NCBI GenBank assembly: GCA_963762255.1 | Contig: CAVXKA010000002.1 | Coordinates: 912,628 to 976,627, forward strand | Source: Candidatus Eiseniibacteriota bacterium | Lineage (GTDB): Bacteria > Eisenbacteria > RBG-16-71-46 > JABDJR01 | Length of the DNA: 64,000 bases | Direction of reading: 5' to 3' | Part shown: positions 4,230 to 45,820 of the stretch, piece by piece | Numbering within the stretch: position 1 is the first letter of the stretch | Layout of the letters: each line of letters begins with the position of its first letter | Position numbers and translations under genes: made by a program | The notes under the pieces: generated by a model | The model's input: the letters and a program-made list of their open reading frames with translations, nothing else | Database searches by the model: none | Told to the model about the DNA's origin: nothing

Positions 4230-5093
4230 TCAGGTTGCCGCGATTCGGGGGATGAGCGCCTCGATGAATCGGGTGAAGGTCTCCCGGAGACGCGAAGTCA
4301 CTTCCATAACCTCGCCGTGGGAAAGGGGCTCCAGCGAGAGGCCGGCGGCCCGGTTGGAGATGCAGGTGACACCCAACACCTCCATTCCCAGGTGCCTGGC
4401 CACGATGACCTCCGGCACGGTGGACATGCCCACGGCGTCTCCCCCGAGGCGACGCGCCATGGCGACCTCGGCCCGCGTCTCATAGGTGGGTCCGAGGTTC
4501 CCCCAGTAGGTGCCGGCCCGCAGCCCGCAGAGCCCTCGTTCCGCGGCAACCTCGAAGCCTATGGCCAGGAGGCGCTTCGAGAAGGGCTCGGCCAGATCCA
4601 CGAAACGATCCGCATCCACAAGAGGACCCCGGCCGCGCAGGGGGCTTCGAAACTGGAAGTTCACCTGGTCCTCGATGAGCATCAGGTCCCCGGGATTCAG
4701 GCGTGGGTCGACCCCGCCGGCGGCGTTCGTCACCACCAGCGCGCGCGCGCCGAGGGCATGCATGACGCGCAGCGGGAAGGTCACCTGGGCCGCCGAGTAC
4801 CCCTCGTACAGATGGAAGCGCCCCTGTTGGGCGGCGACGGGGACGCCGCCGGTCTGCCCGAGGACGAGCCTGCCCGCGTGCCCCTCCACCGTGGCAACAG
4901 GGAAGCCCGGCAGATCGCGGTAGTCCACAGCGACCGGCGCGGTGAGGGTGTCGGCGAACCCGCCGAGGCCGGAGCCCAGGATGAGCGCAACGCGTGGGAC
5001 GACTGGCGTGCGAGCGCGGATCACCTCCACGCACCGGGCGATGTCCGCCGGCGTGAATCCGATGCTGTCCGCATCGCGGAATCCGGCGCTCAT
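4230..5093 (-). CDS. Purine nucleoside phosphorylase (trimeric PNP/MTAP family)
   Basis: 287 aa. ...ALILGSGLGGFADTL...ATVEGHAGRLVLG...HLYEGY...STVPEVIVARHLGMEVLGVTCISN..., typical PNP-I/MTAP fold motifs. The stop overlaps the udk start by 4 nt. Confidence 0.8.
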   Translation of the reverse strand: MSAGFRDADSIGFTPADIARCVEVIRARTPVVPRVALILGSGLGGFADTLTAPVAVDYRDLPGFPVATVEGHAGRLVLGQTGGVPVAAQQGRFHLYEGYSAAQVTFPLRVMHALGARALVVTNAAGGVDPRLNPGDLMLIEDQVNFQFRSPLRGRGPLVDADRFVDLAEPFSKRLLAIGFEVAAERGLCGLRAGTYWGNLGPTYETRAEVAMARRLGGDAVGMSTVPEVIVARHLGMEVLGVTCISNRAAGLSLEPLSHGEVMEVTSRLRETFTRFIEALIPRIAAT

Positions 5094-5716
5094 CGCGCCT
5101 CCCGGAGCATGCTCCGCACTTTGGTCACAAGGAGATCGACGGCGACTCGGTTTCGCCCACCCTCGGGAATGATGATGTCGGCGTAGCGCTTGGAAGGTTC
5201 GATGAACTGGAGATGCATCGGGCGCACGCTCTCTTCGTACTGTTGGAGGATCGATTCCAGGCTTCTCCCCCGCTCCATCGTGTCCCGGCGGATGCGCCGG
5301 ATGAGCCGCACGTCGGGGTCGGTGTCGATGAACACCTTGATGTCCATGAGCTTTCGGAGCGCGGGATCCTCCAACACGAGGATCCCCTCCAGCATGATGA
5401 CGCGGTGCCCCTCCACGCGCACCGTCTCCGGCAGGCGGGAGTGGTGGGTGAAATCGTACGTGGGCTTCTCGATCGGCTGGCCGCGCAGGAGCGCCTCCAT
5501 GTGATCGAGGAGAAGCTCGCGGTCGAAAGCGTCGGGATGGTCGAAGTTGAGCTTCGCCCGCTCTTCTATGGTGAGGCCGGCGAAGTCCTTGTAGTAGGAA
5601 TCCTGCTCGATCATCACGACCTCTCGCGAACCCAGGTTCTCGATGAGGGTGGATGTGACGAGGGACTTCCCGGAAGCGGAGCCGCCGGCGATGCCGAGAA
5701 GAAGGGGCCCTTCCAT
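5090..5716 (-). CDS. udk: Uridine kinase
   Basis: 208 aa. P-loop GIAGGSASGKSLV and an ...IEQDSYYKD... uridine/cytidine kinase signature. Confidence 0.85.
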   Translation of the reverse strand: MEGPLLLGIAGGSASGKSLVTSTLIENLGSREVVMIEQDSYYKDFAGLTIEERAKLNFDHPDAFDRELLLDHMEALLRGQPIEKPTYDFTHHSRLPETVRVEGHRVIMLEGILVLEDPALRKLMDIKVFIDTDPDVRLIRRIRRDTMERGRSLESILQQYEESVRPMHLQFIEPSKRYADIIIPEGGRNRVAVDLLVTKVRSMLREAR

Positions 5717-5735
5717 GACGTCCTGTCCTGCTTTC

Positions 5736-6872
5736 CTAGAAATGATCCCGCGGCGGGACGAACTCCGGGCCGAAGGACCGGCCGATGAGTCCGTCCAGCT
5801 CGTCCAGGACCTGCGTAAGGAGCGCCACCTTGCGCCGCAGCGGAAGGAAGGCGCTCTTGAATCCGTTGAGCACGAGCTTGCGCACGTCCGCGACCCCCAG
5901 CCCGAACGCCTCGACGGCCTTGCGGTACTCGCGGGTAATGTCGGTGTCGCTCATGAGGGTGTTGTCCGTGTTGAGAGTCACCCGGAGCCCCGAATCGTAA
6001 TACAACCGGAACGGATGGTCCTCAAGGCGCTCCACCACCGCGGTCTGGAGATTGGAAGTGAGGCAGATCTCCAGAGGGATGCGGTGGTTGTTCACGTAGG
6101 CCATGAGGTCGGGATCCTCGTGCAGCCGCGTGCCGTGCCCTATGCGATGCGCCCCCAGCGCGTGCAGAGCCTGGTGGATGCTCGCCGGACCGTAGCCCTC
6201 TCCGGCGTGGCACGTGCAGTTGATGTTGTTCTTGAGGATCTTGTAGAAAGCGCTTCCGTGCTCCTTGGCCGGGTAGTTGAACTCGGCGCCGGCGAGATCG
6301 AACCCCACCACCCCGCTCTTCTTGTACTCGACGCATAGGTCGGCGAGGGCAAGGCTCTTGGCGGGAGACATGCTGCGGATGCTGCAGATGATGACGCCGG
6401 TCAGCACCCCCGTCGCCCGCGTTGCCTCATCGAGGCCGGCCAGCACCGAGTCCAGGATCTCCTGCATGGAGTGTCCCTTGAGTTCGTGAAGGATGGGCGA
6501 GAACCGCACCTCGATGTACCGCACGTTCTCCCGCGCGGCATCCTCCACCAGCTCGCGCGCCACGCGCCGCATGGCGCCCGGCTCCTGCAGCACGGAGAGC
6601 GTGTGCTGGAACGCGTCCAGGTACTCCTCCAACGACTCGCAGGCGTCCCCGCACACGAGGCGGCGGCGCAGCTCCGGCTCCGTCTCGCGGGCCAGGTCGA
6701 GGCTCTGGTCGCGGGCCAGCTCGCGAACGGTGTCGAGACGGACCGAGCCGTCGAGATGGATGTGAAGATCGGTCTTGGGGATCTCCCGAAGGAAGCTCGG
6801 GTGGGAGAGGATCATGGCGGTTTCGCGGCTCCGCTCCCCGGGACCGCTCCGCCCCAGCTCCGGCGCGCTCAT
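5736..6872 (-). CDS. add: Adenosine deaminase
   Basis: 378 aa. PKTDLHIHLDGS and metal-dependent hydrolase motifs (HAGE, SxNTDD-like LNTDNTL) typical of Add. Confidence 0.85.
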   Translation of the reverse strand: MSAPELGRSGPGERSRETAMILSHPSFLREIPKTDLHIHLDGSVRLDTVRELARDQSLDLARETEPELRRRLVCGDACESLEEYLDAFQHTLSVLQEPGAMRRVARELVEDAARENVRYIEVRFSPILHELKGHSMQEILDSVLAGLDEATRATGVLTGVIICSIRSMSPAKSLALADLCVEYKKSGVVGFDLAGAEFNYPAKEHGSAFYKILKNNINCTCHAGEGYGPASIHQALHALGAHRIGHGTRLHEDPDLMAYVNNHRIPLEICLTSNLQTAVVERLEDHPFRLYYDSGLRVTLNTDNTLMSDTDITREYRKAVEAFGLGVADVRKLVLNGFKSAFLPLRRKVALLTQVLDELDGLIGRSFGPEFVPPRDHF

Positions 6873-8171
6873 CTAGCGGATCTCCGCCCGCGAGAGAAGA
6901 TCGCGGATCGCTTGCGCTGGCCGCCGCAGGTATTCCTCGGGGTCGAGGTGTGGAAGGCGCCCGCTCGCGACACGGATCTCGCCGTCCACGACCACCCAGC
7001 GCACGGCGTCGCGCGCCGCGGCGTAGACGATCCGGTCGTAGACCGATACGCCGGGGCCGCCGAAGGTCTGCGGACGGTCGAGGTCGAGCACGACCACATC
7101 GCCGGCCTTTCCCGCCTCGAGGCTTCCGATCGCGTCATCCCATCCCACCGCCCGCGCGCCATCGATCGTGGCCATCTCGAGTGCGGCCATCGCGGAGAGA
7201 CTTCCCGGACCGCCCTTCAGGCCTTGCAACAGCGCGGCGAGGCGCATCTCCTCCAGCACGTCCATGTCGTTATTGCAGGGGGCGCCGTCGCAGCCGATGC
7301 CCACCGAGAGGTTGTCCTGCGCGCGCAGGAACGGCAGGTCGGCCACGCCGGATCCCAGCTTCAAGTTGGCCGTCGGGCAGTGCGCGATCTTGAGCGGTCG
7401 TCCGCCCAGCGTCTCCAACTCGGGCTCGCGAAGCCACACCGCGTGGGCGGCGCGCAAGTCAACGTCGAGCACGCCGGTCGTGCTCAGGAACTCCATCTGC
7501 CCCGTGCCCAGCGACGCCCGCACCGCCGCTTCCTCGGCTTCGCTCTCGAGAAGGTGCGTGTGTACGGGCGCGTCCAGCTCCGCGGCCAGGGCGGCGGTGC
7601 GCTCCCAGAGCGCGCGCGAGCAGGAAAGCACGAAGCGCGGGCAGAGGGCGCCGCGGATCCTTCCGTCGGCCTCTCCGTGCCAGCGGCGATACAGATCGCC
7701 CGCCTCCTCGATCGCCCGGTCCGGATCTTCGAGGAGCGCGCTCGGCGCGCCCTCGCCGGTATCCATCAGACACTTCCCCGCCACCGCGCGCAGGCCGGAG
7801 TCGCGGATCGCGCGAAAGATTCCCTCCATGCCGCGCACCAGGCCGAACTCCTGGATCGTGGTGGTGCCGGAGAGAAGACAGTCGGCCGCTCCAAGAAGCC
7901 CGGATGCGTACGCGGTGTCGTCGGTGTGCGCCGCCTCCAGCGGCCAGATGCGTTCGCGGAGCCAGCTCAGAAGCGGGCGGTCCTCGGCGAGGCCGCGAAA
8001 GAGGGCCTGACCGAGATGCACGTGCGCCTGGATGAACCCGGGCAGGACGAAGAGGCCCTGGGCCTCCAGGAGCCGCGTGGCAGGCGGCGGGACGATGCCG
8101 GGGCCGAGCGCAACGATGCGACCGTCGGTGATGAGGAGATCGCCTTCCAGCACGCGCCGCCCGGGGTCCAT
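6873..8171 (-). CDS. Amidohydrolase (COG0402-like nucleobase/nucleoside deaminase: guanine deaminase, MtaD or 8-oxoguanine deaminase-like)
   Basis: The homologous region starts ...LLIRGGTLVTMDPGRRVLEGDLLITDGRIVALG...LPGFIQAHVHLGQALFRG...HLLESEAE...HCPTANLKLGSG...GCDGAPCNNDMD.... The ATG at 8171 (MDPGRR) is the first Met. The true start is probably a non-ATG codon about 8198 (LLIRGG). The track ORF N-terminus up to 8957 is spurious and overlaps hpt. Confidence 0.7.
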   Translation of the reverse strand: MDPGRRVLEGDLLITDGRIVALGPGIVPPPATRLLEAQGLFVLPGFIQAHVHLGQALFRGLAEDRPLLSWLRERIWPLEAAHTDDTAYASGLLGAADCLLSGTTTIQEFGLVRGMEGIFRAIRDSGLRAVAGKCLMDTGEGAPSALLEDPDRAIEEAGDLYRRWHGEADGRIRGALCPRFVLSCSRALWERTAALAAELDAPVHTHLLESEAEEAAVRASLGTGQMEFLSTTGVLDVDLRAAHAVWLREPELETLGGRPLKIAHCPTANLKLGSGVADLPFLRAQDNLSVGIGCDGAPCNNDMDVLEEMRLAALLQGLKGGPGSLSAMAALEMATIDGARAVGWDDAIGSLEAGKAGDVVVLDLDRPQTFGGPGVSVYDRIVYAAARDAVRWVVVDGEIRVASGRLPHLDPEEYLRRPAQAIRDLLSRAEIR

Positions 8172-8224
8172 CGTGACCAGGGTGCCGCCGCGGATCAGGA
8201 GATGGCGATGGGACCGGGGCAGGG

Positions 8225-8755
8225 TCACGGCTGGCGGTAGACCTCTTCTTTGAGCACGCCGATGTAAGGCAGGTTCCGGTAGAGCTGGTTGTAGTCGAGC
8301 CCGTAGCCCACCACGAATTCGTTGGGACACTCGAAGCCGACGTACTTCACCGGCACTTCCTCGGCGCGAGCCTCGCGCTTGTCGAGCAGCGCGCAGATCT
8401 CCACCGACTTGGGATGGCGGGTGTAGAGGTTGTCGAGGAGATAGCGCGCGGTGAGGCCGGTGTCGATGATGTCCTCGACGATCAGGACGTGCCGTCCGTC
8501 GATGGGCTGGTTCAGATCCTTGAGGATGCGCACGACTCCCGAGGAGTGGGTGCCGCCGCCGTACGAGGAGACCGACATGAAGTCGACCTCGAGGTGGGTG
8601 TTCATCGAACGCACCAGGTCCGCCATGTAGGGAAAGCACCCGTTCAGGATGCCGACCATCAGAACGCGCCGGTCCGCGTAGTCGCGAGCGACCTCCGCAC
8701 CCATGGCCTGAACCTTGGCCCGGACTTGTTCCTCGCTGAAGAGAACCTCTCGCAT
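8225..8755 (-). CDS. hpt: Hypoxanthine-guanine phosphoribosyltransferase
   Basis: 176 aa from the internal Met (MREVLFSEEQVRAKVQ...). PRPP-binding VLIVEDIIDTGLT motif. The upstream 210 aa of the track ORF are Arg-rich junk. Confidence 0.85.
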   Translation of the reverse strand: MREVLFSEEQVRAKVQAMGAEVARDYADRRVLMVGILNGCFPYMADLVRSMNTHLEVDFMSVSSYGGGTHSSGVVRILKDLNQPIDGRHVLIVEDIIDTGLTARYLLDNLYTRHPKSVEICALLDKREARAEEVPVKYVGFECPNEFVVGYGLDYNQLYRNLPYIGVLKEEVYRQP

Positions 8756-9929: not shown

Positions 9930-10397
9930 TCAGGGCGCGAGCAGGCGGCGAAGCAACCGAATCTGTCCGGCGTGGTAGGTCAGATGGGTCAGGAGCCGAA
10001 GGATGTAGGCCTGCACGGTGGCGCCGCCGGGCCATCCCTCCGCCGGCGCGGGCCCACCGAGGGCTCGCGGGTCCATCGTGAGGACCGCGGTCCGCGTCTC
10101 GACGCACGCTTCGTCCCACATCGCGAGCACATCCGCCTTCGACGCCCAGGGCTCGGCGGCGAACTCGCGATCGCGTTCGCGCGCGTAGTCGCTGCCGTAG
10201 AGAAGATGGCCGAAGAAGTGCCGGAGGTTGCCGACGAGATGGAGCGCGAGGTTGCCCGGCGAGACCGCGCCCGGCACCGGGCGCTCCCAGAGACGCGCCT
10301 CGGGGACCGCCTCCAGGTCCTCACGCACCGAGACGTGGTAGCGCTCCACCAGATCGGCGACGGTGTTGAGGAACTCCTGCTCCTGGCTCTCGACCAT
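9930..10397 (-). CDS. DinB/DUF664-family (DinB_2-like) four-helix-bundle protein, last gene of the BMC operon
   Basis: 155 aa from MVESQEQEFLNTVADLVERYH.... HxxxH-type DinB motifs (LALHLVGNLRHFFGHLL; THLTYHAGQI). The start lies 1 nt after the stop of the upstream BMC-P gene. Confidence 0.6.
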   Translation of the reverse strand: MVESQEQEFLNTVADLVERYHVSVREDLEAVPEARLWERPVPGAVSPGNLALHLVGNLRHFFGHLLYGSDYARERDREFAAEPWASKADVLAMWDEACVETRTAVLTMDPRALGGPAPAEGWPGGATVQAYILRLLTHLTYHAGQIRLLRRLLAP

Positions 10398-10398
10398 G

Positions 10399-10671
10399 TC
10401 AGATCCCCATGTGGACTTCGTCCACGACGCCAACGATGACGGCCCGCACCGGCGCGTTCGGGTCACCGACCACCTGGCGGGCGGAGTTGCCCTCGTCGAT
10501 CAGGAGCACCAGCTCGCCGGCGCCCGCGTCGACGGAGTCGAGCGCGATCACGTAGCGCCCGTCCGGCGCGAGCTTCTCGTCCAGGCGATCCACCAGCAGC
10601 ATGCGTCGCCCCTGATAGAACGGGTGCTGGATCGTGGAGACGACGGTGCCGGTTACTCTGCCGAGGAACAT
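10399..10671 (-). CDS. BMC vertex protein (BMC-P, EutN/CcmL/PduN family), copy 1
   Basis: 91 aa. MFLGRVTGTVVSTIQHPFYQGRRMLLVD...AGAGELVLLIDEGNSARQVVG...VRAVIVGVVDEVHMGI, a canonical EutN/CcmL fold sequence. Confidence 0.8.
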   Translation of the reverse strand: MFLGRVTGTVVSTIQHPFYQGRRMLLVDRLDEKLAPDGRYVIALDSVDAGAGELVLLIDEGNSARQVVGDPNAPVRAVIVGVVDEVHMGI

Positions 10672-10709
10672 CGCGAGGTCCCTCCGTCCGGCGACGCGAA
10701 CACGTTCAC

Positions 10710-10979
10710 CTACTGGTCGCTCACGTCGTCGGCGATGCCGACGATGGCGTGGTCCACGGGCACGAAGGTCTCGGGCAACGCCATCGCGGCCTCGCGCCCG
10801 CCGATGAAATAGACGAGCTCGCCGGGACCGGCCTGCCCGGTGGCGTCGGCGCACACCAGCGGATCGCCCGCGCTCTTCATCTTGCGGTCGAGCGGCTCCA
10901 CCATCAGGAGCTTCACCCCTTCGAGCCCTTCGCTCTTGACCGTCGCCACCAGCGTGCCGCGCACCCGCCCGAGTTGCAT
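10710..10979 (-). CDS. BMC vertex protein (BMC-P), copy 2
   Basis: 89 aa. MQLGRVRGTLVATVKSEGLEGVKLLMVEPLD...GELVYFIGGREAAMA.... Its ATG overlaps the stop of the upstream BMC-T (ATGA). Confidence 0.8.
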   Translation of the reverse strand: MQLGRVRGTLVATVKSEGLEGVKLLMVEPLDRKMKSAGDPLVCADATGQAGPGELVYFIGGREAAMALPETFVPVDHAIVGIADDVSDQ

Positions 10980-11605
10980 CAGCCTTCGCCCTGGTTCCAC
11001 TGGGCCGCGAAACGCGTCCCGCCGAAGATGTTCTCGGCCAGTTCGGTATGGAGCCGCGGAATCACAACTTTCTGCACGAGGTTGCCGCTCTCGATCGCGG
11101 AAACGCCGAATTCCACCGCGGCCTCCACGTCGGCCTGCTCGCCGGCAAAGAGCAGAAGCGCCTTCCCGCCCAGACCGTTGGCGAGACGAAGCTCCACCAG
11201 CGCCACCTGCGCCCCCTTCATACCGGCATCGGCGGCGCGGATCGCGCTCACCGTGGTGCGCGTCTCGATCACGCCGAGCGTGTCGATGGGATCCTTCGAG
11301 CGCTGACCGGCGATGGCGTTGCCCACTGCGGGGTGGATGTCGGGAAGGAACAGGCGATCGATGAGCGCGGGCGCGCCCGCCTCCACTCCGGCAGCGAGCG
11401 ATTCCTCGACGCTGGCCACGTCGCCGTCCACCAGCACCAGGTACTTGCCCGGATGAACGCTCCCCGCCACCAGCGCCCGCACCGGCGCCTTCTTCACCAT
11501 CGCGTCGGCCGCTCGCATGCCGAGCGCGATGCTCGAGAACTCGAGGAGTCCGAGCGCGGGCACAGTCACCCCGGGAGCGAGGTCGGCGGCTTCGATCGAG
11601 TCCAT
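10979..11605 (-). CDS. BMC-T shell protein (tandem BMC-domain pseudohexamer)
   Basis: 208 aa with two BMC domains (ALGLLEFSSIALGMRAADAMVKKAPV... and TLGVIETRTTVSAIRAADAGMKGAQVALVE...). Confidence 0.75.
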   Translation of the reverse strand: MDSIEAADLAPGVTVPALGLLEFSSIALGMRAADAMVKKAPVRALVAGSVHPGKYLVLVDGDVASVEESLAAGVEAGAPALIDRLFLPDIHPAVGNAIAGQRSKDPIDTLGVIETRTTVSAIRAADAGMKGAQVALVELRLANGLGGKALLLFAGEQADVEAAVEFGVSAIESGNLVQKVVIPRLHTELAENIFGGTRFAAQWNQGEG

Positions 11606-11615
11606 CGTCCCTTTC

Positions 11616-13052
11616 CTACACGATCCGGAAGCGGTCCACGAGGACGCACCGCCGCCAGCGGGTGAAACTGCGAGCGCGGGTCATTCCCTCGCCGGTGGGG
11701 CTCGCGATCGAGAACGAGGTGAACCCCTCGCCGCCCGCGCCCAGCCCGGCCAGCGACGAGCCGTTCTTGACGAAGATCGAGCAGTCCATGACCCGGGCCA
11801 TGCGGCTCAGGGCATCCACGTTCCGCGAGTGCATGACCGCGGTGTGGCGGAAGCCGTGCTCGGCGGCCTTGGCCAGATCGATAGCCGCGTTCACGTCGCG
11901 CACGCGCACCAGCGGCATGACCGGCATCATCTGCTCGGTCCAGACCAGCGGATGATCCTCGGGGACTTCCACCAGGATCATGCGCACGTCGTCGCCCACC
12001 GTGATCCCCATCTCCTTGAGAATGACGGCGGGGATCTTTCCGATGAAGTTCTTGTTGATCACGCCGTGCTGGCGCGGCCCGCGCATCTCGGTGAAGATCG
12101 TCTTCTCGAGCTTCCCGAGCTGCCAGGCGGTGAGTTCCACCGCGCCGGCGGCGATCATCGCCTTCTTCAGGCGATCCGCCACCGCGTCCACGCAGATCAC
12201 TTCCTTCTCCGTGGTGCAGACGATCTGGTTGTCGAAGGATCCGCCTTTGACGATGTCGCGACCGGCGCGCTCGAAGTCGGCGGTCTCGTCCACCACCACC
12301 GGCGGATTACCAGGGCCCGCGCAGATGGCGCGCTTGCCGCTGCCCATCGCCTCTTTCACCACGCCGGGACCGCCGGTGACGACCAGCAGGTTGACCAGCT
12401 TGTGGCGCATGAGTTCCTGCGCGCTCTCGATCGTGGGATTGGCCACACACGTGACGAGGTTGGGCGGCCCGCCCGCGGCGGTGATCGCCTGATTGATGAG
12501 CTGCACCGTCTTGGCCGAGCAGTTCTTGGCGTTGGGATGGGCGTTGAAGACGGCCGCGTTCCCCGCCGAGAGCATCCCGATCGCGTTGTTGATGATGGTG
12601 GCGGTGGGGTTGGTGGTCGGTGTGATCGCGCCCACCACGCCGAAGGGCGCAAGCTCCAGAAGCGTGAGCCCGTGGTCGCCGGTGGTGACCAGTGGTTCGA
12701 GATCCTCGGGCCCCGGGCTCTTGTTGATGACGAGAAGGTTCTTCTCGACCTTGTCCTCGTAGCGGCCGAGCCCGGTCTCCTCGCGCGCCATCCAGGAGAG
12801 CAGCTCCGCGTTGTGACGCAGCACGACCCGCATCTGGGCGATGATGTCGTAGCGCAGGGCGAGGCTCGACTCACAAAGCAAGCGCTGCGCTTCCTTGGCC
12901 GCGGTGACCGCGCTCTCCACGCCGGCGAAGATGCCGTCGCTCCCGGGCGCCGGGGGCGGCGGGAGCGGCTTCCCCTCGGGGGTGTGGCCCGACTTCATCG
13001 AGCCCAACACATCCTGCACCGTGCGGCTGATCTCCTCGCGGGAGATGCTCAT
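11616..13052 (-). CDS. CoA-acylating aldehyde dehydrogenase (PduP/EutE-like metabolosome signature enzyme) with an N-terminal encapsulation-peptide-like helix
   Basis: 478 aa. ALDH fold with a catalytic Cys region (...NQIVCTTEKEVI...) and PduP/EutE-like layout. The N-terminus ISREEISRTVQDVLGSM (amphipathic) is followed by a Pro-rich linker GKPLPPPPAPGSDG. Confidence 0.8.
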   Translation of the reverse strand: MSISREEISRTVQDVLGSMKSGHTPEGKPLPPPPAPGSDGIFAGVESAVTAAKEAQRLLCESSLALRYDIIAQMRVVLRHNAELLSWMAREETGLGRYEDKVEKNLLVINKSPGPEDLEPLVTTGDHGLTLLELAPFGVVGAITPTTNPTATIINNAIGMLSAGNAAVFNAHPNAKNCSAKTVQLINQAITAAGGPPNLVTCVANPTIESAQELMRHKLVNLLVVTGGPGVVKEAMGSGKRAICAGPGNPPVVVDETADFERAGRDIVKGGSFDNQIVCTTEKEVICVDAVADRLKKAMIAAGAVELTAWQLGKLEKTIFTEMRGPRQHGVINKNFIGKIPAVILKEMGITVGDDVRMILVEVPEDHPLVWTEQMMPVMPLVRVRDVNAAIDLAKAAEHGFRHTAVMHSRNVDALSRMARVMDCSIFVKNGSSLAGLGAGGEGFTSFSIASPTGEGMTRARSFTRWRRCVLVDRFRIV

Positions 13053-13067
13053 CCGCCTCTCCTTCCC

Positions 13068-13364
13068 TTACTCATTCGACTTGTCGTAGACACGGCGATC
13101 GTCCAGCTCCCAGGTGTCCACGATCGCCATCACGACGGCGTCGCAGGGACGGTCCTTGGTGGACTGGGTCTGGCGCGCACTGGAGCCGGTGGCGAAGAGG
13201 ACGACTTCGCCGACCCCCGCCCCCACTGCATCGCTCGCCACCACGAAGCTGCCGGTCTCCTTGGCTTCCGCGGTGAGCTGGCGCAGGAGCAGGAACTTGA
13301 GTCCCTCCATGCTCTCTTCCTTGCGCGAGGCCACCACGGTGCCGACCACCCGGGCCAGTAGCAT
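13068..13364 (-). CDS. BMC vertex protein (BMC-P), copy 3
   Basis: 98 aa. [30 protein letters not shown]...[14 protein letters not shown].... Confidence 0.8.
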
Positions 13365-13421
13365 GAGCTTTCCTCCGCGGACGGGGCCGGGACGCGTGCC
13401 CCGACCCCGTTCGGAAGTGCG

Positions 13422-13733
13422 TTACTTGCCGCCCATCTCGGCGCGGGCTTCCTTGCTCCGGCCGAGAGGCAGCGCGATGTCCACGTTGACGTGCGGCCGC
13501 GGAATGGTGTGCGTGCTCACCACCTCGCCCACCTTCTCCGCCCCACGCTTGCCGGCATCCACCGCCGCTTTCACCGCGGCCACGTCGCCGCGGACGATGA
13601 CCGTCACATAGCCCCCGCCGATCTTCTCGTAGGCGACCAACTCCACCTTCGCCGCCTTCACCATGGCGTCGGCGGCTTCCACCGTCGCGGCGAATCCGCG
13701 GGTTTCGATCATGCCCAGCGCTTCTGCCATCAC
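13422..13733 (-). CDS. BMC-H hexamer shell protein (PduA/EutM-like)
   Basis: 103 aa. [81 protein letters not shown], a near-canonical Pfam00936 sequence. Confidence 0.9.
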
Positions 13734-13824
13734 GTCCTCCGTTGCTTCGGGTTATGCGGCCGGGGAGGCGCCTTCGTCGGGCTTCACGGCCCGCGCGTGC
13801 CCCGTCCGGTCTTCTGAAATCGTT

Positions 13825-14454
13825 CTAGGACTCCCGCCCGGTCAACTCCGCGATCGCGGCCTCGGCGGCGCGGTACCCGACGTCGATGTCGCGCTCCTCA
13901 CCGCCGAGATAGATGCGGCCGAACGAACCGAACGCGCGCACATCGAGAATGTTGATGTGCGCCGCCTTCTCCGCCTCGTTGGCGGCGAGCGCCGCGTAGG
14001 CCGCGGGCTCCAGCTCCATGACGTATAGGCTATGCCCCGGCACCAGCATGTTGCCGTGGCGCATCCGGTTGATGAGCTGGGCCTGGAGCGGATCCACGAG
14101 GCGGATCACCTGGCTCGAGAGGACGCGCGGCTTGCGCCGGTCGCTCTCGGTGAGACCGCACGCATCGAGGATCGCCTGCCCCGCCTGGCGCACTTCGCCC
14201 TGCGATTCGGAGTGAACCTCGAGAAGGCCGTACAGGCGCTCGACGATCTGCATGCCGGGAAAAACGTTGGTGCTCTTCACCGCGATGTCGGTGATGCGGT
14301 TGATCTCGATGCCGGGTGAGATCTCCACGTACAGGCACGCTTGGCCGGGCAGCGGCAGGAACCCTCCCGCCACCGTGCCCAGGAACGCCGCGTGCTGCGG
14401 CTGCAAGCTGTCGAGAAACACGTAGGAGCGCAGGTCGATCTGCGTTTTCGCCAT
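13825..14454 (-). CDS. BMC-T shell protein, permuted tandem type (PduB/EutL-like)
   Basis: 209 aa from [31 protein letters not shown].... Two permuted BMC repeats. The ATG overlaps the deoC stop (ATGA). The track ORF N-terminus up to 15306 is Arg-rich junk. Confidence 0.7.
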
Positions 14455-15488
14455 CAGTAAGGACCTTTCGTTTGCGGGGAGTCGACGGCCTCGCCGCGCG
14501 ACTCCTTCACGATGCGCACCCCCGCCGAGGCGCCGATGCGGGTCGCCCCCGCCTCGATCATCCCCAGCGCATCGGCATAGCTCCGAATGCCGCCCGCGGC
14601 CTTCACCCCCATTTCGGGGCCCACCGTGGCGCGCATGATGGCCACGTCGCGGATGGTCGCCCCCCCTGAGGCGAATCCGGTGGAGGTCTTCACGAAATCC
14701 GCGCGCGCGCGCTTGGCGAGAAGGCAGGCCACGACCTTTTCCTCGTCGGTGAGGAGGGCGGCTTCGATGATCACCTTCACGATCACGTTCGATTCGTGGC
14801 AGGCGGCGGTGACCTCGGCGATGTCTTCCTCCACCAGATCGTAGTTCCCGCTCTTGAGCGCGCCCACGTTGATGACCATGTCCACCTCGCGCGCGCCCTC
14901 GCGGATCGCCTTGCGCGACTCGAAAGCCTTGGTGGCGGGAGTGGTGGCGCCGAGCGGGAAGCCGACCACGGTGCAGACCTTGGCGTCGCTCCCTCGCAAG
15001 AGCTGCGCGCAGAGTCGCACGAAGCTTGGGTTGACGCACACCGAGGCGAAGTGGTTGCGCGCCGCTTCCTCGCAGAGCTTCTGAATCTCCGCTTCGGTGG
15101 CGTCGGGCTTGAGCATGGTGTGGTCGATGTAGCTGGCGATGTCGTGGGCCACCGCGCCGCTTCCGCCGCCGGAGCCGATACGCGACGCGCCGGCGGCCAC
15201 AAAGCTTCGCACCGTCTCCGGGCTGCGCTGCGCGGGGTTCGTGCTGCGCGCGCGGTCTTCGGAGTCTGCGGAGCTGGCGTGACGGATGGCGGGTCGCTCG
15301 TAGCACGGCTCGTAGGAGCGGCGGTAGGCCTCGGTGACCGCGGGGCCCTTGGGTGCCGACCCGGCGGGCGAGGACGGCTTGCTTGCTGCAGGCGCTTCCG
15401 CCGTTGGCGGCGCCGCGGCGGCCGGCCCCTGCAGCCGGGCCAGCACCTCGCGGGTGATCCGCTCGATGAGGGCATCGCGCTCGTTCAT
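14454..15488 (-). CDS. deoC: Deoxyribose-phosphate aldolase with an N-terminal encapsulation peptide and long Ala/Pro/Ser linker
   Basis: 344 aa from [22 protein letters not shown] (amphipathic helix), then an ~80-aa low-complexity linker ([28 protein letters not shown]...). The DeoC TIM-barrel follows: ...[15 protein letters not shown]...VCVNPSFV...[10 protein letters not shown]...FVKTSTGF...[21 protein letters not shown]. The ATG overlaps the rpiB stop. Confidence 0.85.
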
Positions 15489-16045
15489 CGCGCTCCCGCT
15501 CCCGCCCCGTCCAGGGCGTCGATCTTGGCCACCCGCTTCAAGTGGCGCTCTTCCGTGCAGGCGGTCGCAAGAAAGGTCTTCACGATCGCGCGGGCGAGCA
15601 CGACGCCGATCAATCCCGCTCCCAGCGTGACCACGTTGGCGTTGTTGTGCTCGCGCGCGTTGGCGGCGGTGGAGAGGTCGTAGCAGAGCGCGGCCCGCGC
15701 GCCCGGAATCTTGTTGGCGGCCATGCAGGATCCGATGCCGGCGCCGTCGATCATGATCCCGAACTCGGCGCGCCCATCGACGACCGCGCGCGCGACCGCC
15801 GCCGCGAAGTCGGGATAGTCCACCGCGTCGGTGGAGTGCGTGCCGAGGTCGACCGGTTCCCACCCGATCGTCGGGAGGAATCGCTTGAGATCTTCCTTGA
15901 GCGGAAAGCCGCCGTGGTCGGCGCCGATCGCCACTCGGCGCGCCGCGACCGCACCGGGATTCGCGAGCGATGCGTCGACGACGCGCTCCACCACCGTGCG
16001 CACGAGATTCTCAAGCTCTCGATCGTGCAAGCCGCCGTCCTCCAT
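15485..16045 (-). CDS. rpiB: Ribose-5-phosphate isomerase B with an N-terminal encapsulation-peptide-like extension
   Basis: 186 aa. About 35-aa extension ([20 protein letters not shown]) before the RpiB/LacAB core [16 protein letters not shown]...[23 protein letters not shown].... Confidence 0.8.
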
Positions 16046-16060
16046 TCGCTTCGAGCCGCC

Positions 16061-16089
16061 TTGCCTCGAAGTCGGGGCGCGATGATACT
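16061..16089 (+). promoter_or_regulatory. Candidate sigma70-like promoter for tag in the 79-nt divergent intergenic region (TTGCCT-N17-GATACT). The BMC operon promoter must also lie in this gap.
   Basis: It is the only intergenic gap between the divergently transcribed rpiB (BMC operon) and tag. A GGAGGAA RBS lies 2-3 nt before the tag ATG. Confidence 0.25.
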
Positions 16090-16124
16090 ACGGGCCCCCG
16101 GAGGCGTCCACACACGGAGGAAGC

Positions 16125-16697
16125 ATGGCCGACAAGACGCGCTGCGCATGGGCGGGCACCGATCCCCTCTACGTGGCTTACCACGATCACGAGTGGGGCG
16201 TGCCCGAGCACGACGATCGCGCGCTCTTCGAGAAGCTCCTGCTGGACGGGTTCCAGGCCGGCCTGGCCTGGATCACGATCCTGCGCAAGCGCGAGAACTT
16301 TCGGCGGGCCTTCGACGGGTTCGACCCGGAGAAGATCGCCCGCTACCGCGCGGCGAAGATCGAATCGCTGCTCGCGGATCCCGGTATCGTGCGCAACCGG
16401 CAGAAGGTAGCGGCCTCGGTGGGCAATGCGCGGGCCTACATCGAGCTGAGGAAGGAAGCCGGGAGTTTCGACCGGTATCTGTGGAGCTTCGTGGGGGGGA
16501 AGCCGATAATGAACGCGTACCGGACGATGGCGGAATTGCCGGCGCGGTCGGCGGAATCCGAAGCGATGAGCCGCGATCTCGTGCGTCGGGGGTTTCGATT
16601 CGTGGGCCCCACCATCTGCTACGCGTTCATGCAGGCGGTGGGGATGACGCACGATCACCTCGTCGACTGCTTCCGGTACGGAAAGCTCAAGCCATGA
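16125..16697 (+). CDS. tag: DNA-3-methyladenine glycosylase I
   Basis: 190 aa. ...DPLYVAYHDHEWGVPEHDDRALFEKLLLDGFQAGLAW...VGPTICYAFMQAVGM..., Zn-finger Tag signature residues. Confidence 0.85.
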   Translation: MADKTRCAWAGTDPLYVAYHDHEWGVPEHDDRALFEKLLLDGFQAGLAWITILRKRENFRRAFDGFDPEKIARYRAAKIESLLADPGIVRNRQKVAASVGNARAYIELRKEAGSFDRYLWSFVGGKPIMNAYRTMAELPARSAESEAMSRDLVRRGFRFVGPTICYAFMQAVGMTHDHLVDCFRYGKLKP

Positions 16698-17098
16698 CCT
16701 CGTTGCGCCGCAACAAGAACTGGATCCTCGTCGCCGTCGCGGTGGCGGTGCCCGTGCTCGTGATCGTGGGGCTGCGGGTGGCCGCCCGCGTCGAGGAGTG
16801 GCCCGTCTCCCTCGGCGCCAACACCGTAGAGCAGGTCAAGGGACAACCGCTGACGCTCTACTCCTGCGACAACATCCCCAAGCTCTCGGGCACGCCGTGT
16901 CATGAACAGGGCAGCGCCGACTTCATGATGGTGGTGCTCCACGACAAGCCTGCGGGCGCGGCGTCGGTGCGCGTCCCCGACCCCGGCGCCGGCATCCCCG
17001 CGCGCACGCTCGAGCTTCGTTTCATCGGCGGAACGGTCTGGGTCAAGGTCGAGGCGAGCGATCTGCAAGGATGGATCGAGCGCGGCTACACGCGCTGA
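16694..17098 (+). CDS. Hypothetical membrane-anchored protein
   Basis: 134 aa. MTSLRRNKNWILVAVAVAVPVLVIVGLRV... has a single N-terminal TM helix. It overlaps the tag stop by 4 nt. Confidence 0.45.
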   Translation: MTSLRRNKNWILVAVAVAVPVLVIVGLRVAARVEEWPVSLGANTVEQVKGQPLTLYSCDNIPKLSGTPCHEQGSADFMMVVLHDKPAGAASVRVPDPGAGIPARTLELRFIGGTVWVKVEASDLQGWIERGYTR

Positions 17099-17154
17099 AT
17101 CGCGCGGCAACAACCGCCGCGTGACATCCGCCCGCTTCGGTTCCGTCGCCCCCG

Positions 17155-17823
17155 CTACTCGGCCTTCACGAACCTCACCATCCCGGTCTTCAGGTCTTCG
17201 CTGGCGGGGCTCGGGCCGAACCAGATGGCGAAGAGGGCCCGCGCGAACGCAGGATCGGCGATGGGCGCGCAGGGGCGACCCGGCATCATCACGTAGAGCC
17301 CCATGCCCGGCATCCAGGTGATCTCGATCGTCTGACCGTCCTTGACGCCGGCGTCGGTGAAGAAGCCGAGGAAGGCCGCCTTCGCTTTCTCCAGGTCCGG
17401 CGTCATCGCATCCGCGGGAAGAGTCTTTGCGAACCCCTCCTCATAGGTCTCGCGGATCTTTCCGCCGTCCACGTCCCGCAGGAAGTGCATCTCGACCCGC
17501 TTCGCGAAGTTTCCGTTGATCAACGCGGCAAAGGGATCGGCACCGAGCGGCGCGTTCTCGTCCGCATAGAGCACACCCTCGTACACCTTGAACATGAGCT
17601 TCTTGCGCAGGCCGGAACCGAGCGCCTTCAAGGTGACCGTCTCCCCCGCCGCCTTGATCGCGATCTTCTCGGGGAACTTCTTATCCGTGCCCTTTCCCTT
17701 GAAGGTCTCCGTGCCCGCGGGGGACACGTTGAGGATCTGCGGGATCGCGCCTTGGGCGCGCACGAGGACCGCAGCGAAGATCGTGAGGACCAGGGCGAGG
17801 AGAGCCATGCGGGCGAGCTTCAT
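17155..17823 (-). CDS. Secreted chalcone-isomerase-like (Chalcone_3 family) protein
   Basis: 222 aa. Signal peptide MKLARMALLALVLTIFAAVLVRAQG. Chalcone-isomerase-like fold features (FKVYEGVLYADE..., LFAIWFG). Confidence 0.5.
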   Translation of the reverse strand: MKLARMALLALVLTIFAAVLVRAQGAIPQILNVSPAGTETFKGKGTDKKFPEKIAIKAAGETVTLKALGSGLRKKLMFKVYEGVLYADENAPLGADPFAALINGNFAKRVEMHFLRDVDGGKIRETYEEGFAKTLPADAMTPDLEKAKAAFLGFFTDAGVKDGQTIEITWMPGMGLYVMMPGRPCAPIADPAFARALFAIWFGPSPASEDLKTGMVRFVKAE

Positions 17824-17839
17824 CGTTCACCTCCGGAGG

Positions 17840-19975
17840 TCAGGGCCGGATATCGAGCCTGATACGGGCGTCGACCGCCACGCATCCCTTGCCAACTGAT
17901 AGCACCTTTACAGGGTTCAGGTCCATCTCCGCGATCTCGGGATGATTCCCCACCAGAACGGACACACGCAGGATCGCTTCCTCCAGGGCCGGGACATCGG
18001 CCGGAGGCGCGCCGCGATAGCCGTTGAGGAGTGCATACCCCCGAACCCCCCGAACCATTTCGTCGGCGTCGCGGTCGGTGAGCGGGTGGATGCGGAAGGT
18101 CACGTCCTTCATCACTTCGACCTGCACCCCGCCGAGGCCGAACGCCACGAGCGGGCCGAACTTGGGATCCTGGGTCACGCCGACCAGAACCTCGACCCCT
18201 TCCTTCACCAGGGGCTGCACGGTGAAGCCGTGCGCCGCGCCCTCCAGGCCGCGGGTGCGCAGCGCGGCGCAGATCTCGTTCACCGCGCTCTCGACCTCCG
18301 CTTCCGTGCGCAGGTCGAGCCGCACACCGCCCACGTCGCTCTTGTGCGAGATGGAATCGGAGTGGAGCTTCACGACCACGGGGAAACCGAGGGAGCGCGC
18401 GGCGGCCGCCGCCTCCTTGGGGGTCGCGGCGAAGAGCACGGGCGGGGTGCGGATGCCGTACGCGGCCAGGACGCGGTCGACTTCGTCGGCGTTGAGCCAG
18501 CCGCCTTCATCGCCCATGCGCTCGCGCGCGGCCGCAAACACCGCGGCGGCGTCCGCCGCGCGCACGTCGTCAAAGGCGATCTCGCGACCGGGGGCCTTCG
18601 CCATCCACTGGCCGTGGCGCACCGCGCGCCCGAGCACGCGCACCGCGCTCTCGGGAAACGCATACGAGGGGATGTTTCCCTCCTTGAGCGAGCGCAGTCC
18701 TTCCGGCACGCCGTGCTTGCCGAGGAAGCAGGTGAGCACCGGCTTCTCGGTGCCTTCGGAGCCGTTCACGATCCCCCGCGCCACCTCGCGGGGCTCCGTC
18801 ACGATCGGCGGCACGAAGAGCGCGATCAAGGCGTCGATCTTCGGGTCCGCGAGCAGCGCCCGCGTGGCACGCTCGTAGTTCTGCGCGGTGGCCGAAGCGA
18901 TCATGTCCACCGGGTTGCGCACGCTCGCTTCCGGGGGAAGGAACTCGTGCAGGCGCGCCGTGGTGCTCTCGCTCAGGTCGGACACCTCCAGCCCGTGCGC
19001 CTCGCAGGCATCGGTCGCGAGGATCCCGGGACCGCCGGCGTTGGTCAGGATGGCCACGCGGCTCCCCTTCGGGATCGGCTGATACGCGAGGAACGCGGCC
19101 ATGTCGAAGAGTTCTTCCACGGTGTCGACGCGGATGATGCCGGTCTGCGCGAAGAGCGCGTCCACCGCCACGTCGGCGCCTGCCAGGGCGCCGGTGTGGC
19201 TCGTGGCCGCGGTCATGCCTCGGCGCGTGCGCCCGCTCTTTACGGCGACGATCGGCTTGCGCCGCGTGATCTCACGAGCGAGCCGCGTGAACTTGCGGGG
19301 GTTACCGAACGATTCCAGGTACAAGAGCATGACCTTGGTGCGCGGGTCGGCGTCCCACCACTGCACGAGGTCGTTGCTGGAAACGTCGGCCTTGTTCCCG
19401 ATGGAGACGAAGTCGCTGACCCCGATGTTGAAGCTGCGCGTGTAGTCGAGGATGGCCACCCCGAGCGCGCCGCTCTGGCTGGCGATGGCCACGTTGCCTT
19501 CCGGCGGATAGGTCGGGGCAAAGGTCGCGTCGAGGCGCACGTCGGGTGCGGTGCTGAGCACACCGAGGCAATTCGGCCCCACCAGGCGCATGCCGTGCGC
19601 GCGAACGATCTCCTTCAAGCGCGCTTCGCGGGCCGCGCCTTCTTCGTTGACTTCCTTGAACCCGGCCGAGATCACGACCACCCCGCGCACACCCTTCGCG
19701 GCGCAGGCTTCGACCATGGCGACGACGACCTTGGCCGGCACCACGACCACCGCGAGGTCGACCGGGCCCGGGATATCGGCGATGCTCGCGTAAGCCTTCA
19801 CCGACTGCACGAAGTCGGACTTGAGGTTGACCGGGTACACCGGCCCCTGGAAACCGTTCAAGAGCAGGTTGCGGAAGATCTCGCCGCCGATCGACCCGCG
19901 CTCGGTGGAAGCGCCGATCACCGCCACCGATCGCGGGCGCAAGAGACCCGAGAGATCCACGGCGCTCCCGCTCAC
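17840..19975 (-). CDS. Acetyl-CoA synthetase (ADP-forming) / NDP-forming acyl-CoA synthetase, fused alpha-beta
   Basis: About 711 aa from the GTG at 19975 (overlapping the usp stop). CoA-binding domain (SVAVIGASTERGSIGGEIFRNLL), succinyl-CoA-synthetase-like His region and C-terminal ATP-grasp. The upstream 197 aa of the track ORF are junk. Confidence 0.75.
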   Translation of the reverse strand: MSGSAVDLSGLLRPRSVAVIGASTERGSIGGEIFRNLLLNGFQGPVYPVNLKSDFVQSVKAYASIADIPGPVDLAVVVVPAKVVVAMVEACAAKGVRGVVVISAGFKEVNEEGAAREARLKEIVRAHGMRLVGPNCLGVLSTAPDVRLDATFAPTYPPEGNVAIASQSGALGVAILDYTRSFNIGVSDFVSIGNKADVSSNDLVQWWDADPRTKVMLLYLESFGNPRKFTRLAREITRRKPIVAVKSGRTRRGMTAATSHTGALAGADVAVDALFAQTGIIRVDTVEELFDMAAFLAYQPIPKGSRVAILTNAGGPGILATDACEAHGLEVSDLSESTTARLHEFLPPEASVRNPVDMIASATAQNYERATRALLADPKIDALIALFVPPIVTEPREVARGIVNGSEGTEKPVLTCFLGKHGVPEGLRSLKEGNIPSYAFPESAVRVLGRAVRHGQWMAKAPGREIAFDDVRAADAAAVFAAARERMGDEGGWLNADEVDRVLAAYGIRTPPVLFAATPKEAAAAARSLGFPVVVKLHSDSISHKSDVGGVRLDLRTEAEVESAVNEICAALRTRGLEGAAHGFTVQPLVKEGVEVLVGVTQDPKFGPLVAFGLGGVQVEVMKDVTFRIHPLTDRDADEMVRGVRGYALLNGYRGAPPADVPALEEAILRVSVLVGNHPEIAEMDLNPVKVLSVGKGCVAVDARIRLDIRP

Positions 19976-20436
19976 GGGTTCTCCATCTCGCCGTCTGGTC
20001 GATGCACGACGAGAACCGGACAGGGCGAGGTCCGCACGACCTTCTCGGTCACGCTTCCCAGCAGCATATGTTTGAGGCCGGTACGGCCATGAGTGCCCAT
20101 GACGATCAAGTCGGTCTTCTCCTCTTCCGCAAGGCGAACGATCCCCGCGAAGGGCGCGCCGTGCAGGACGCGCGTGTCGAGCCGCACGCCCTCGGGCAAC
20201 GCCTTCGGCACGAACGCCTCCATCTCCCGAGCCGCCTCTGCGGACAGTCGCTGGGTCAGCTCGGGGGGCGGCACCGCGATCCCCACGTAGCCGTAGGTAA
20301 GCGGGATGTCGTCCACCACGTGGCAGACCAGGAGCGTGCCGCCGGGCGAAACGAGGTCGAGAGCGTAGTCGAGGGTGGCCCGCGAGGTCTCGGAGAAATC
20401 GATAGGAGCGAGCACTTTCGTGAACTGCTTGGCCAT
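19972..20436 (-). CDS. Universal stress protein (UspA family)
   Basis: 154 aa. ...ILAPIDFSETS...LLVCHVVD...DLIVMGTHGRTGLKHMLLGSVTEKVVRTSPCPVLVV. Confidence 0.8.
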   Translation of the reverse strand: MAKQFTKVLAPIDFSETSRATLDYALDLVSPGGTLLVCHVVDDIPLTYGYVGIAVPPPELTQRLSAEAAREMEAFVPKALPEGVRLDTRVLHGAPFAGIVRLAEEEKTDLIVMGTHGRTGLKHMLLGSVTEKVVRTSPCPVLVVHRPDGEMENP

Positions 20437-34579: not shown

Positions 34580-34581
34580 GG

Positions 34582-35208
34582 TCAATCGTGCTCGAGGACC
34601 ACGCCTTCGATGATGTTGGCCACGTCCTCGCAGCGGTCGGTGGCCTTCTCCAGGATCTCGTAGATCTCCTTCCACTTGATCACCATGATCGGATCCTTCT
34701 CGGTCAGGAACAGATTGGCGATGGCCTCCCGGAGAACGGCGTCGGCGTCGTTCTCCAGCCGGTTCACCTCGATGCACTTCTGGCGGATGACGTCGGCGTG
34801 GCGAAGGTCGCGCAGCCCGTTCACCGCGTGCTGAACCTCGACTGCGGATTGGGCGAGGATGCCGGCCAGGGACTTGATCTCCGGCGTCATCTCGGTGAGC
34901 CGATACAGGTGCAGCCGTCCGGCCACACCGTCCACCGAGTCCATCACGTCGTCCATCTTGCTGATGAGGCGATGGATGTCGTTGCGATCGAGCGGGGTGA
35001 TGAACGTCTTGTGCAGGGCTTCCATGCAGCGGTGCGTGATGACGTCCGCCTCGTGCTCGATCTCCTTGATGCGCCTCGCCCGGAGGCTCACGTTACCCCC
35101 GGAGGTGACGAGCTCGACAAGTTCCGTCGTCCCGGACACGGTGAGCGCGATGTGCTGATCGAAAAATCCGAAGAAGCTCACCTCGCGGGGCAAGAGACGC
35201 GGGAACAT
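34582..35208 (-). CDS. DUF47/PhoU-like phosphate transport regulator (Pit accessory protein)
   Basis: 208 aa from MFPRLLPREVSFFGFFDQHIALTVSGTTELVEL.... It is 2 nt upstream of pit. This is the typical TIGR00153-type pairing with PiT. Confidence 0.65.
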   Translation of the reverse strand: MFPRLLPREVSFFGFFDQHIALTVSGTTELVELVTSGGNVSLRARRIKEIEHEADVITHRCMEALHKTFITPLDRNDIHRLISKMDDVMDSVDGVAGRLHLYRLTEMTPEIKSLAGILAQSAVEVQHAVNGLRDLRHADVIRQKCIEVNRLENDADAVLREAIANLFLTEKDPIMVIKWKEIYEILEKATDRCEDVANIIEGVVLEHD

Positions 35209-45814: not shown

Positions 45815-45820
45815 TCGATC

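Follow-up and report, generated by a model that had tools for sequence, protein, structure and literature searches.

Sugar-phosphate-utilising (SPU) bacterial microcompartments (BMCs) are distinguished by two signature enzymes, the deoxyribose-5-phosphate aldolase DERA (pfam01791) and RpiB (pfam02502) (Sutter et al., 2021; Dwyer et al., 2024). The SPU3 type, for which the definition of Sutter et al. (2021; Nat Commun 12:3809, Supplementary Data 2) is used here, encodes only three enzymes, namely an aldehyde dehydrogenase (AldDH), pfam02502 in first position and pfam01791, with N-terminal encapsulation peptides (EPs) on AldDH and DERA. Its shell comprises one standard BMC-H, a BMC-P triplet, a CcmP-like BMC-Tdp and a BMC-Ts with neither a pore cysteine nor a PduS partner, and satellite loci are uncommon for this type. 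A phosphotransacylase (PTAC) is confined to SPU1/4/7; the PTAC-less types typically encode a BMC-Tdp, through the larger pore of which acetyl-CoA is proposed to exit (Dwyer et al., 2024). The supply of CoA and NAD+ without PduL, an alcohol dehydrogenase (ADH) or PduS is a question already posed for SPU2/3/5/6, the working hypothesis being the BMC-Tdp pore. The locus described here lies in a 64-kb stretch of DNA from a Candidatus Eiseniibacteriota bacterium (contig CAVXKA010000002.1, positions 912,628 to 976,627; hereafter the window) and consists of a minus-strand metabolosome operon of about 5.65 kb (16045 to 10399), close to which lies a gene for a fused alpha-beta ADP(NDP)-forming acyl-CoA synthetase (ACD) coupled to that of a universal stress protein (Usp). 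The reading that we regard as probable is that the operon is an SPU3 cassette without lumenal cofactor recycling and that the Usp-ACD pair is an independent module of the surrounding gene backbone.

Genes were called by a codon-position GC score, because at high GC (68%; 64-70% across the whole window) raw lists of open reading frames are swamped by shadow frames, and about 60 products of the window were scanned with Pfam. EP-like N-termini were judged from the sequence by an amphipathic helix, its hydrophobic moment and a following linker. The operon reads RpiB-like, DERA, CcmP-like BMC-Tdp, BMC-H, BMC-P, AldDH, BMC-Ts, BMC-P, BMC-P (Table 1) and is assigned to the SPU3 type, as every listed SPU3 feature that was tested is present. 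The pfam02502 gene precedes and adjoins the pfam01791 gene, with the DERA ATG overlapping the RpiB stop, and AldDH, DERA and RpiB are the only enzymes. AldDH begins with an EP-like amphipathic helix (EEISRTVQDVLGSM; hydrophobic moment 0.60) followed by the Pro-rich linker PPPPAPG, and DERA with an EP-like helix followed by an Ala/Pro-rich linker of about 95 residues; the N-terminal motif of DERA is kept in 16 homologues with the consensus RxxLVExITRxVLxxL. The RpiB-like protein also starts with an amphipathic, EP-like helix (hydrophobic moment 0.74), and an aspartate replaces its catalytic cysteine (IMIDGAGIG), as in the inactive, DERA-binding RPI of SPU loci (Dwyer et al., 2024; Commun Biol 7:1562).

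The shell proteins agree with the same assignment. The BMC-Tdp is barely detected by Pfam and scores 339.9 against the NCBIfam CcmP cut-off of 340, with CcmP (4ht5) as its best match in the PDB and CsoS1D behind it (E = 2.3e-58). Its Glu-Arg pair (E72/R73) aligns with E69/R70 of CcmP, which we take to be the pair that gates the pore, and the homologous protein of the relatives carries PF27545 (CsoS1D_N). The BMC-H is the only single-domain PF00936 gene and has the standard KAA(K) and PRPH motifs. The BMC-Ts contains no cysteine and therefore lacks a PduT-type Fe-S pore; its score with the PduT model is 110 bits, under the cut-off of 250, and PF01512 (PduS) is absent from the window. The last two BMC-P genes are adjacent and complete the triplet. 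A plus-strand open reading frame at 10363-10812 was rejected as a gene, as it has no Pfam match and the minus-strand BMC-P genes opposite it are preferred.

The operon shows no core difference from described SPU3 loci (Axen et al., 2014; Sutter et al., 2021; Dwyer et al., 2024), with which it shares the enzyme set, the EPs, the shell set, the lack of PTAC and ADH and a cysteine-less RpiB. The same gene order, RpiB-DERA-Tdp-H-P-AldDH-Ts-P-P, recurs in 20 loci of Acidimicrobiia, Chloroflexota, Gemmatimonadota and Planctomycetota, with AldDH identities of 53-63%. Local features are the additional EP-like helix on RpiB, the position of the cassette between tag and dinB and the purine-nucleoside salvage cluster nearby. 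SPU6 (Chloroflexi) and SPU2 also have the DERA/RpiB/AldDH core, a BMC-Tdp and a BMC-P triplet and usually lack PTAC. However, in SPU6 the EP is C-terminal and sits on an AldDH of another clade (31-34% identity to that of the window), the gene order differs and there is no BMC-Ts, and in SPU2 a PduT-type Ts with a pore cysteine is frequent and PduS occasional. Metabolosomes of the PDU and EUT types share with the window an aldehyde-generating signature enzyme, an AldDH of the EutE/PduP family, EP packaging and a BMC-H/T/P shell, but the window locus lacks a lumenal phosphotransacylase or alcohol dehydrogenase, so that cofactors would not be recyclable inside the shell; conversely, the CcmP-like double-stacking trimer is not found in PDU or EUT1/2 shells. 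Two further types in the catalogue of Sutter et al. (2021) were ruled out: PVM-like, which uses a class II aldolase and PTAC, and HO, the main locus of which has neither DERA nor RpiB.

Table 1. Features of the window and of related loci. Coordinates are those of the window unless a locus is named; lengths are of the predicted products.
Feature	Coordinates	Strand	Length	Match or remark
RpiB-like protein, first gene of the operon	15485..16045	-	186 aa	Pfam PF02502 4.6e-50; NCBIfam RpiB subfamily scores above cut-offs
Deoxyribose-5-phosphate aldolase (DERA/DeoC), signature enzyme	14454..15488	-	344 aa	Pfam PF01791; TIGR00126 deoC 280 bits, cut-off 117
BMC-Tdp, CcmP-like tandem-domain shell protein	13825..14454	-	209 aa	PDB 4ht5 CcmP E = 7.8e-86, gap-free alignment
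BMC-H, hexamer shell protein	13422..13733	-	103 aa	Pfam PF00936 1.7e-31
BMC-P, pentamer protein 1	13068..13364	-	98 aa	Pfam PF03319 6e-29
CoA-acylating AldDH, EutE/PduP family	11616..13052	-	478 aa	Pfam PF00171; NF011927 643.7 bits, cut-off 403
BMC-Ts, tandem-domain shell protein	10979..11605	-	208 aa	Pfam PF00936, two stretches, 1.8e-37
BMC-P, pentamer protein 2	10710..10979	-	89 aa	Pfam PF03319 4.9e-23
BMC-P, pentamer protein 3, last gene of the cassette	10399..10671	-	90 aa	Pfam PF03319 1.5e-25
Sigma-70-like promoter match	16082..16110	-		between the divergent Tag and RpiB genes, 37 nt upstream of the RpiB ATG
ACD, fused alpha-beta ADP(NDP)-forming, backbone gene	17840..19975	-	711 aa	
Usp, universal stress protein	19972..20436	-	154 aa	Pfam PF00582 1.4e-35
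Chalcone-isomerase-like protein, downstream of ACD	17155..17823	-		Pfam PF16036
Tag, 3-methyladenine DNA glycosylase I, backbone, divergent from the BMC operon	16125..16697	+		Pfam PF03352 2.3e-83
DinB/MST-like protein, backbone, abuts BMC-P 3	9930..10397	-		Pfam PF04978/PF12867
HGPRT	8225..8755	-		Pfam; NCBIfam score above cut-off
Amidohydrolase/deaminase	6873..8228	-		Pfam
Adenosine deaminase (Ada)	5736..6872	-		Pfam; NCBIfam score above cut-off
Uridine kinase (Udk)	5090..5716	-		Pfam; NCBIfam score above cut-off
Purine nucleoside phosphorylase (PNP)	4230..5093	-		Pfam; NCBIfam score above cut-off
Short-chain dehydrogenase/reductase (SDR) of relatives	L001:8567-9331	-		
SDR of relatives	L003:8508-9272			
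SDR of relatives	L004:8481-9245			
SDR of relatives	L005:8602-9339			

The initial annotation had noted that neither PduL nor an ADH lies in or near the operon, and the Pfam scan bears this out for the whole window, in which no PF06130 (PduL), PF00465 (Fe-ADH), PF01515 (Pta/EutD), PF00871 (AckA) or PF00121 (TPI) match was found. The sole protein of the medium-chain dehydrogenase/reductase (MDR) 'Zn-ADH' superfamily (45821-46837) lies 30 kb from the BMC genes, matches ADH_zinc_N only, reaches no NCBIfam cut-off and has no N-terminus with an EP plus linker. It directly follows a gene for a PduO-type cobalamin adenosyltransferase (PF01923; the two genes span 45158-46837 on the plus strand), and no B12-dependent enzyme was seen in the window. 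PduL, ADH, Pta, AckA and PduS are likewise absent from the 21-kb loci of four relatives (L001 and L003-L005). A tblastn search with an unvalidated PduL probe returned nothing significant, which is a weak negative only. The components of a complete metabolosome core, a BMC-linked phosphotransacylase together with an encapsulated ADH or PduS/MNdh, are thus not found within the 64 kb. The annotation had also presented lumenal regeneration of NAD+ and CoA as an open gap. The locus indeed has no lumenal recycler, but the absence of PTAC and ADH is already described, because the SPU3 definition lists AldDH, DERA and RpiB only, and the Tdp-exit hypothesis has been published for it.

An EP-bearing PduL, ADH or PduS/MNdh encoded in a satellite locus beyond the window could complete the core. 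Several BMC types commonly have satellite loci (Sutter et al., 2021), the scan reached 64 kb of a contig that is at least 1.4 Mb long, and an SDR gene beside RpiB in sister genomes shows the cassette to be variable in its accessory content. However, the BMC-Ts of the window lacks any cysteine, the four relatives have no such genes within 10 kb on either side, and the relatives' SDR lacks both an EP and a window homologue, making a satellite locus very unlikely. This SDR (adh_short, 245-254 aa) lies between Tag and RpiB, divergent from the operon, in four BMC-containing sister genomes (Table 1); the window, L007 and the BMC-less L088 and L089 do not have it, and in some lineages it seems to accompany the cassette. 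It was rejected as a hidden NAD+-recycling ADH, being generic (similar to FabG and glucose dehydrogenase) and under all NCBIfam cut-offs, in addition to lacking an EP and a counterpart in the window. Two relatives (L003:15125-16732 and L004:15265-16830) encode a hybrid kinase (PAS-HisKA-HATPase-receiver) between DinB and the last BMC-P; it is absent from the window and could be a regulator of the cassette.

The ACD was described in the initial annotation as a fused ADP-forming acetyl-CoA synthetase that starts with a GTG over the stop of the Usp gene, about 2 kb from the operon, and that has no EP-like extension. The RpiB start (16045) and the ACD stop (17840) are 1.8 kb apart, with three genes between, and the TGA stop of Usp overlaps the GTG start of ACD as GTGA (19972-19975), so that the two genes form a translationally coupled pair. 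The ADP-forming character stands, since all domains of the five-domain architecture are present (PF13380/PF02629 CoA_binding, PF13607 Succ_CoA_lig, PF19045 Ligase_CoA_2 and PF13549 ATP-grasp_5). These domains take up residues 15 (start of CoA-binding) to 707 (end of ATP-grasp) of the 711, which leaves no terminal extension; the N-terminal hydrophobic moment reaches at most 0.42, compared with 0.59-0.74 for AldDH, DERA and RpiB, and neither an EP nor a linker, as expected of BMC cargo, was found on the protein. Specificity for acetyl-CoA is putative, as every NCBIfam cut-off is missed: TIGR02717 gives 553.2 bits (cut-off 567.15), NF045494 (the Archaeoglobus acetyl-CoA synthetase) 547 (1200) and the best full-length model, 4-hydroxybutyrate-CoA ligase, 644 (1300). 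The same five-domain architecture is found in ACD I of Chloroflexus aurantiacus, in the Candidatus Korarchaeum ACD (4xyl) and in the Nitrosopumilus 4-hydroxybutyrate-CoA ligase (8wzu). The order of the alpha/beta fusion is that of 8wzu (E = 7e-166), 4xyl also being matched, and a segment SHTGA, picked out by eye, is presumably the phosphohistidine site of the family. The window gene differs from these known ACDs in being coupled to that of a Usp.

The arrangement of the intervening genes places ACD outside the BMC operon. Going from ACD towards the operon, the chalcone-isomerase-like gene lies on the ACD strand, followed by orf134 and Tag on the opposite strand, and it is the opposite orientation of these two that separates ACD from the operon. 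The chalcone-isomerase-like protein has a clear N-terminal signal peptide (MKLARMALLALVLTIFAAVLVRAQG) and is therefore probably exported, so that Usp, ACD and this protein form no coherent cytosolic pathway; its gene is absent from L088 and L089. A scan for sigma-70-like promoters over 9.7-20.8 kb returned a single site, upstream of RpiB, where 0.7 would be expected by chance, and is weak evidence; together with the strand layout, this lone site argues against co-transcription of ACD with the BMC genes. A terminator scan gave a count equal to the shuffle mean.

Comparison with related genomes gives the decisive evidence that Usp-ACD belongs to the backbone. The closest GTDB representative by DERA is L007 (87% identity). 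Three further relatives (L003, L004 and L005; DERA identity 66-71%) have the order MutY-Usp-ACD-CHI...Tag-(SDR)-RpiB...BMC-P-P-(kinase)-DinB, where CHI is the chalcone-isomerase-like gene. Two other genomes, L088 (a 263-kb contig) and L089 (a 136-kb contig), carry the order AT12-orf377-epimerase-PAP2-AT5-MutY-Usp-ACD-Tag-DinB-hydrolase-HGPRT-amidohydrolase-Ada, in which AT12 denotes an aminotransferase and AT5 a class-V aminotransferase. Their backbone proteins are 41-76% identical to those of the window and their ACD orthologues 66-67%, and the 4-nt Usp/ACD overlap is also present in both. Neither genome has BMC genes at the Tag/DinB site, where Tag, divergently oriented, directly abuts DinB; accordingly, the neighbour of Tag is the BMC cassette in L001, L003-L005 and L007 but DinB in L088 and L089. 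In the window, DinB directly follows the last BMC-P, and its end at 9930 is the left edge of the segment delimited by the initial annotation. ACD orthologues of 706-722 aa occupy the same backbone position in BMC-containing and BMC-less genomes alike. As the BMC-less genomes keep Usp-ACD in place, the pair belongs to the backbone and not to the BMC, and these gene orders identify the 5.65-kb cassette as an indel between tag and dinB, with Usp-ACD and the nucleoside-salvage genes (4230..8755, minus strand) as parts of the backbone. No direct or inverted repeats were found flanking the cassette, the repeat families seen reflecting paralogy among BMC domains, and the cassette does not differ from its flanks in GC or in third-codon-position GC (GC3).

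The recurrence of ACD beside SPU loci was assessed in a sample of 36 shell-containing DERA loci from other lineages with 363 kb of flanking DNA, 20 of these loci being SPU3-like. One of the 36, but no SPU3-like locus among the 20, has an ACD within 10 kb, and with a rough chance expectation of about 0.16 this one occurrence is not significant. This case is L042, an SPU6-like locus of Anaerolineales, in which ACD, a GntR/UTRA regulator and EP-bearing RpiB and DERA follow one another on one strand (L042:5828-9480); its ACD lacks an EP, has 698 aa and is 41% identical to that of the window. The proposal in the initial annotation that ACD is an outlet tied to BMC-derived acetyl-CoA is therefore not sustained, given that the gene is a backbone component in BMC-less L088 and L089 and that 35 of the 36 other loci have no ACD nearby.

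Several observations nevertheless weigh against treating the cassette and Usp-ACD as unconnected, or against the account of cofactor exchange that accompanies it. ACD is 1.8 kb from the operon in the window and 4-11 kb from the BMC genes in five BMC-containing relatives, the distance of about 11 kb in L001 and L087 being due to other genes (PEPCK and others) inserted between. The unrelated L042 also has a same-strand ACD upstream, so that a loose functional tie is possible. Gain and loss of the cassette are both compatible with the comparison, the equal GC and GC3 of the flanks not resolving between them. The scan covered 64 kb of the genome, and a PTAC or ADH could exist in a satellite locus elsewhere; moreover, that CoA and NAD cross the shell by way of the Tdp pore is a hypothesis from the literature.

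Some of these observations would also be accounted for if ACD replaced PduL and acetate kinase, converting exported acetyl-CoA to acetate, ATP and CoA in the cytosol as a fermentative step co-regulated with Usp. The reaction of the family, judged by PDB and NCBIfam names, is acyl-CoA + ADP + Pi to acid + ATP + CoA, and the absence of PTAC from the locus means that some cytosolic enzyme must free CoA. On the other hand, L088 and L089, both without a BMC at the site, carry Usp-ACD with the same overlap and in the same place in the backbone, and the frequency of ACD near SPU loci of other lineages does not point to an association. ACD is a separate transcription unit without an EP, divided from the operon by opposite-strand genes, and its substrate assignment, under all NCBIfam cut-offs, is tentative. 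A cytochrome c gene in the window suggests a respiring organism, in which acetyl-CoA could instead enter the TCA cycle, and no paper joining an ADP-forming acetyl-CoA synthetase to microcompartments was found in a search of the literature. Replacement of PduL and acetate kinase by ACD is accordingly considered unlikely. There is a similarly slim chance that a Usp-coupled cytosolic ACD is the main sink for Tdp-exported acetyl-CoA, both here and, independently, in the Anaerolineales locus; if so, CoA would be released, and ATP formed by substrate-level phosphorylation, outside the organelle and not through a lumenal PduL with acetate kinase.

For an SPU3 cassette beside an independent Usp-ACD module, the substrate, the cofactor route and the role of RpiB can be inferred by following the published SPU model. 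Deoxyribose 5-phosphate would enter the shell and be cleaved by the EP-tagged DERA to give glyceraldehyde 3-phosphate together with acetaldehyde, and the EP-tagged AldDH would convert acetaldehyde, CoA and NAD+ to acetyl-CoA and NADH. The RpiB-like protein, with its aspartate in place of the catalytic cysteine, is probably a packaging partner of DERA. As there is no lumenal enzyme for recycling CoA or NAD+, the cofactors would have to pass between lumen and cytosol, with the gated pore of the CcmP-like BMC-Tdp as the most plausible passage. General cytosolic metabolism would then use the acetyl-CoA and NADH, and the cytochrome c gene points to respiration. ACD may take a share of the acetyl-CoA like any cytosolic user, without being a dedicated partner of the BMC.

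A nucleoside origin of the deoxyribose phosphate fits the proximity of PNP genes. In the window, PNP lies about 5 kb from the cassette, and three unrelated lineages have a homologue of 44-47% identity located 2-3 kb downstream of an SPU3-like operon (L015 at about 7802, L043 at about 17759 and L070 at about 16993). However, HGPRT-amidohydrolase-Ada also occurs in the BMC-less L088 and L089 and is thus backbone in this lineage; PNP itself lies outside the range fetched for these two. A second arrangement observed in other lineages, mostly Pyrinomonadaceae (Acidobacteriota), is an RpiB and DERA pair beside an HGPRT-like phosphoribosyltransferase (L011, L017, L024, L029, L032, L039, L040, L044, L048, L060, L065, L066, L074 and L084), with no shell genes in the fetched DNA. 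The DERA of these loci is 59-66% identical to BMC DERA, but only from about residue 87 onwards, the EP and linker being absent, and the loci look like an unencapsulated RpiB-DERA pair tied to purine salvage.

Other features of the window lie farther from the cassette. An open reading frame of 137 aa (33553-33966, minus strand) has its sole match in the C-terminal third (positions 243-350) of the PHO4 phosphate-transporter profile and adjoins a PhoU_div gene; together with the uncalled gap at 33966-34582, it may represent a frameshifted or truncated transporter or an incomplete gene call. An HNH endonuclease gene (22915-24225, plus strand) occupies a variable stretch between DUF302/cytochrome c and a class-V aminotransferase; HNH genes are also present at the edges of L003 and L004 near MutY-Usp and are not found in L088 and L089. 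Two genes at the left end of the window (2053-3969 and 3-1955, both on the minus strand) encode large secreted-type proteins with weak matches to type IX secretion system (T9SS) C-terminal sorting, FlgD_ig, CBM_56 and CarboxypepD_reg domains, a combination that hints at a lineage resembling the FCB group, such as Gemmatimonadota or Eisenbacteria.

The locus adds one more example of SPU3, in a high-GC lineage. The same backbone with and without the 5.65-kb cassette offers a natural comparison, in which ACD and the nucleoside-salvage genes fall outside the gene set of the organelle. The locus opens no new line on the cofactor problem of these microcompartments, and its main value is as a caution on inferring function from adjacency.

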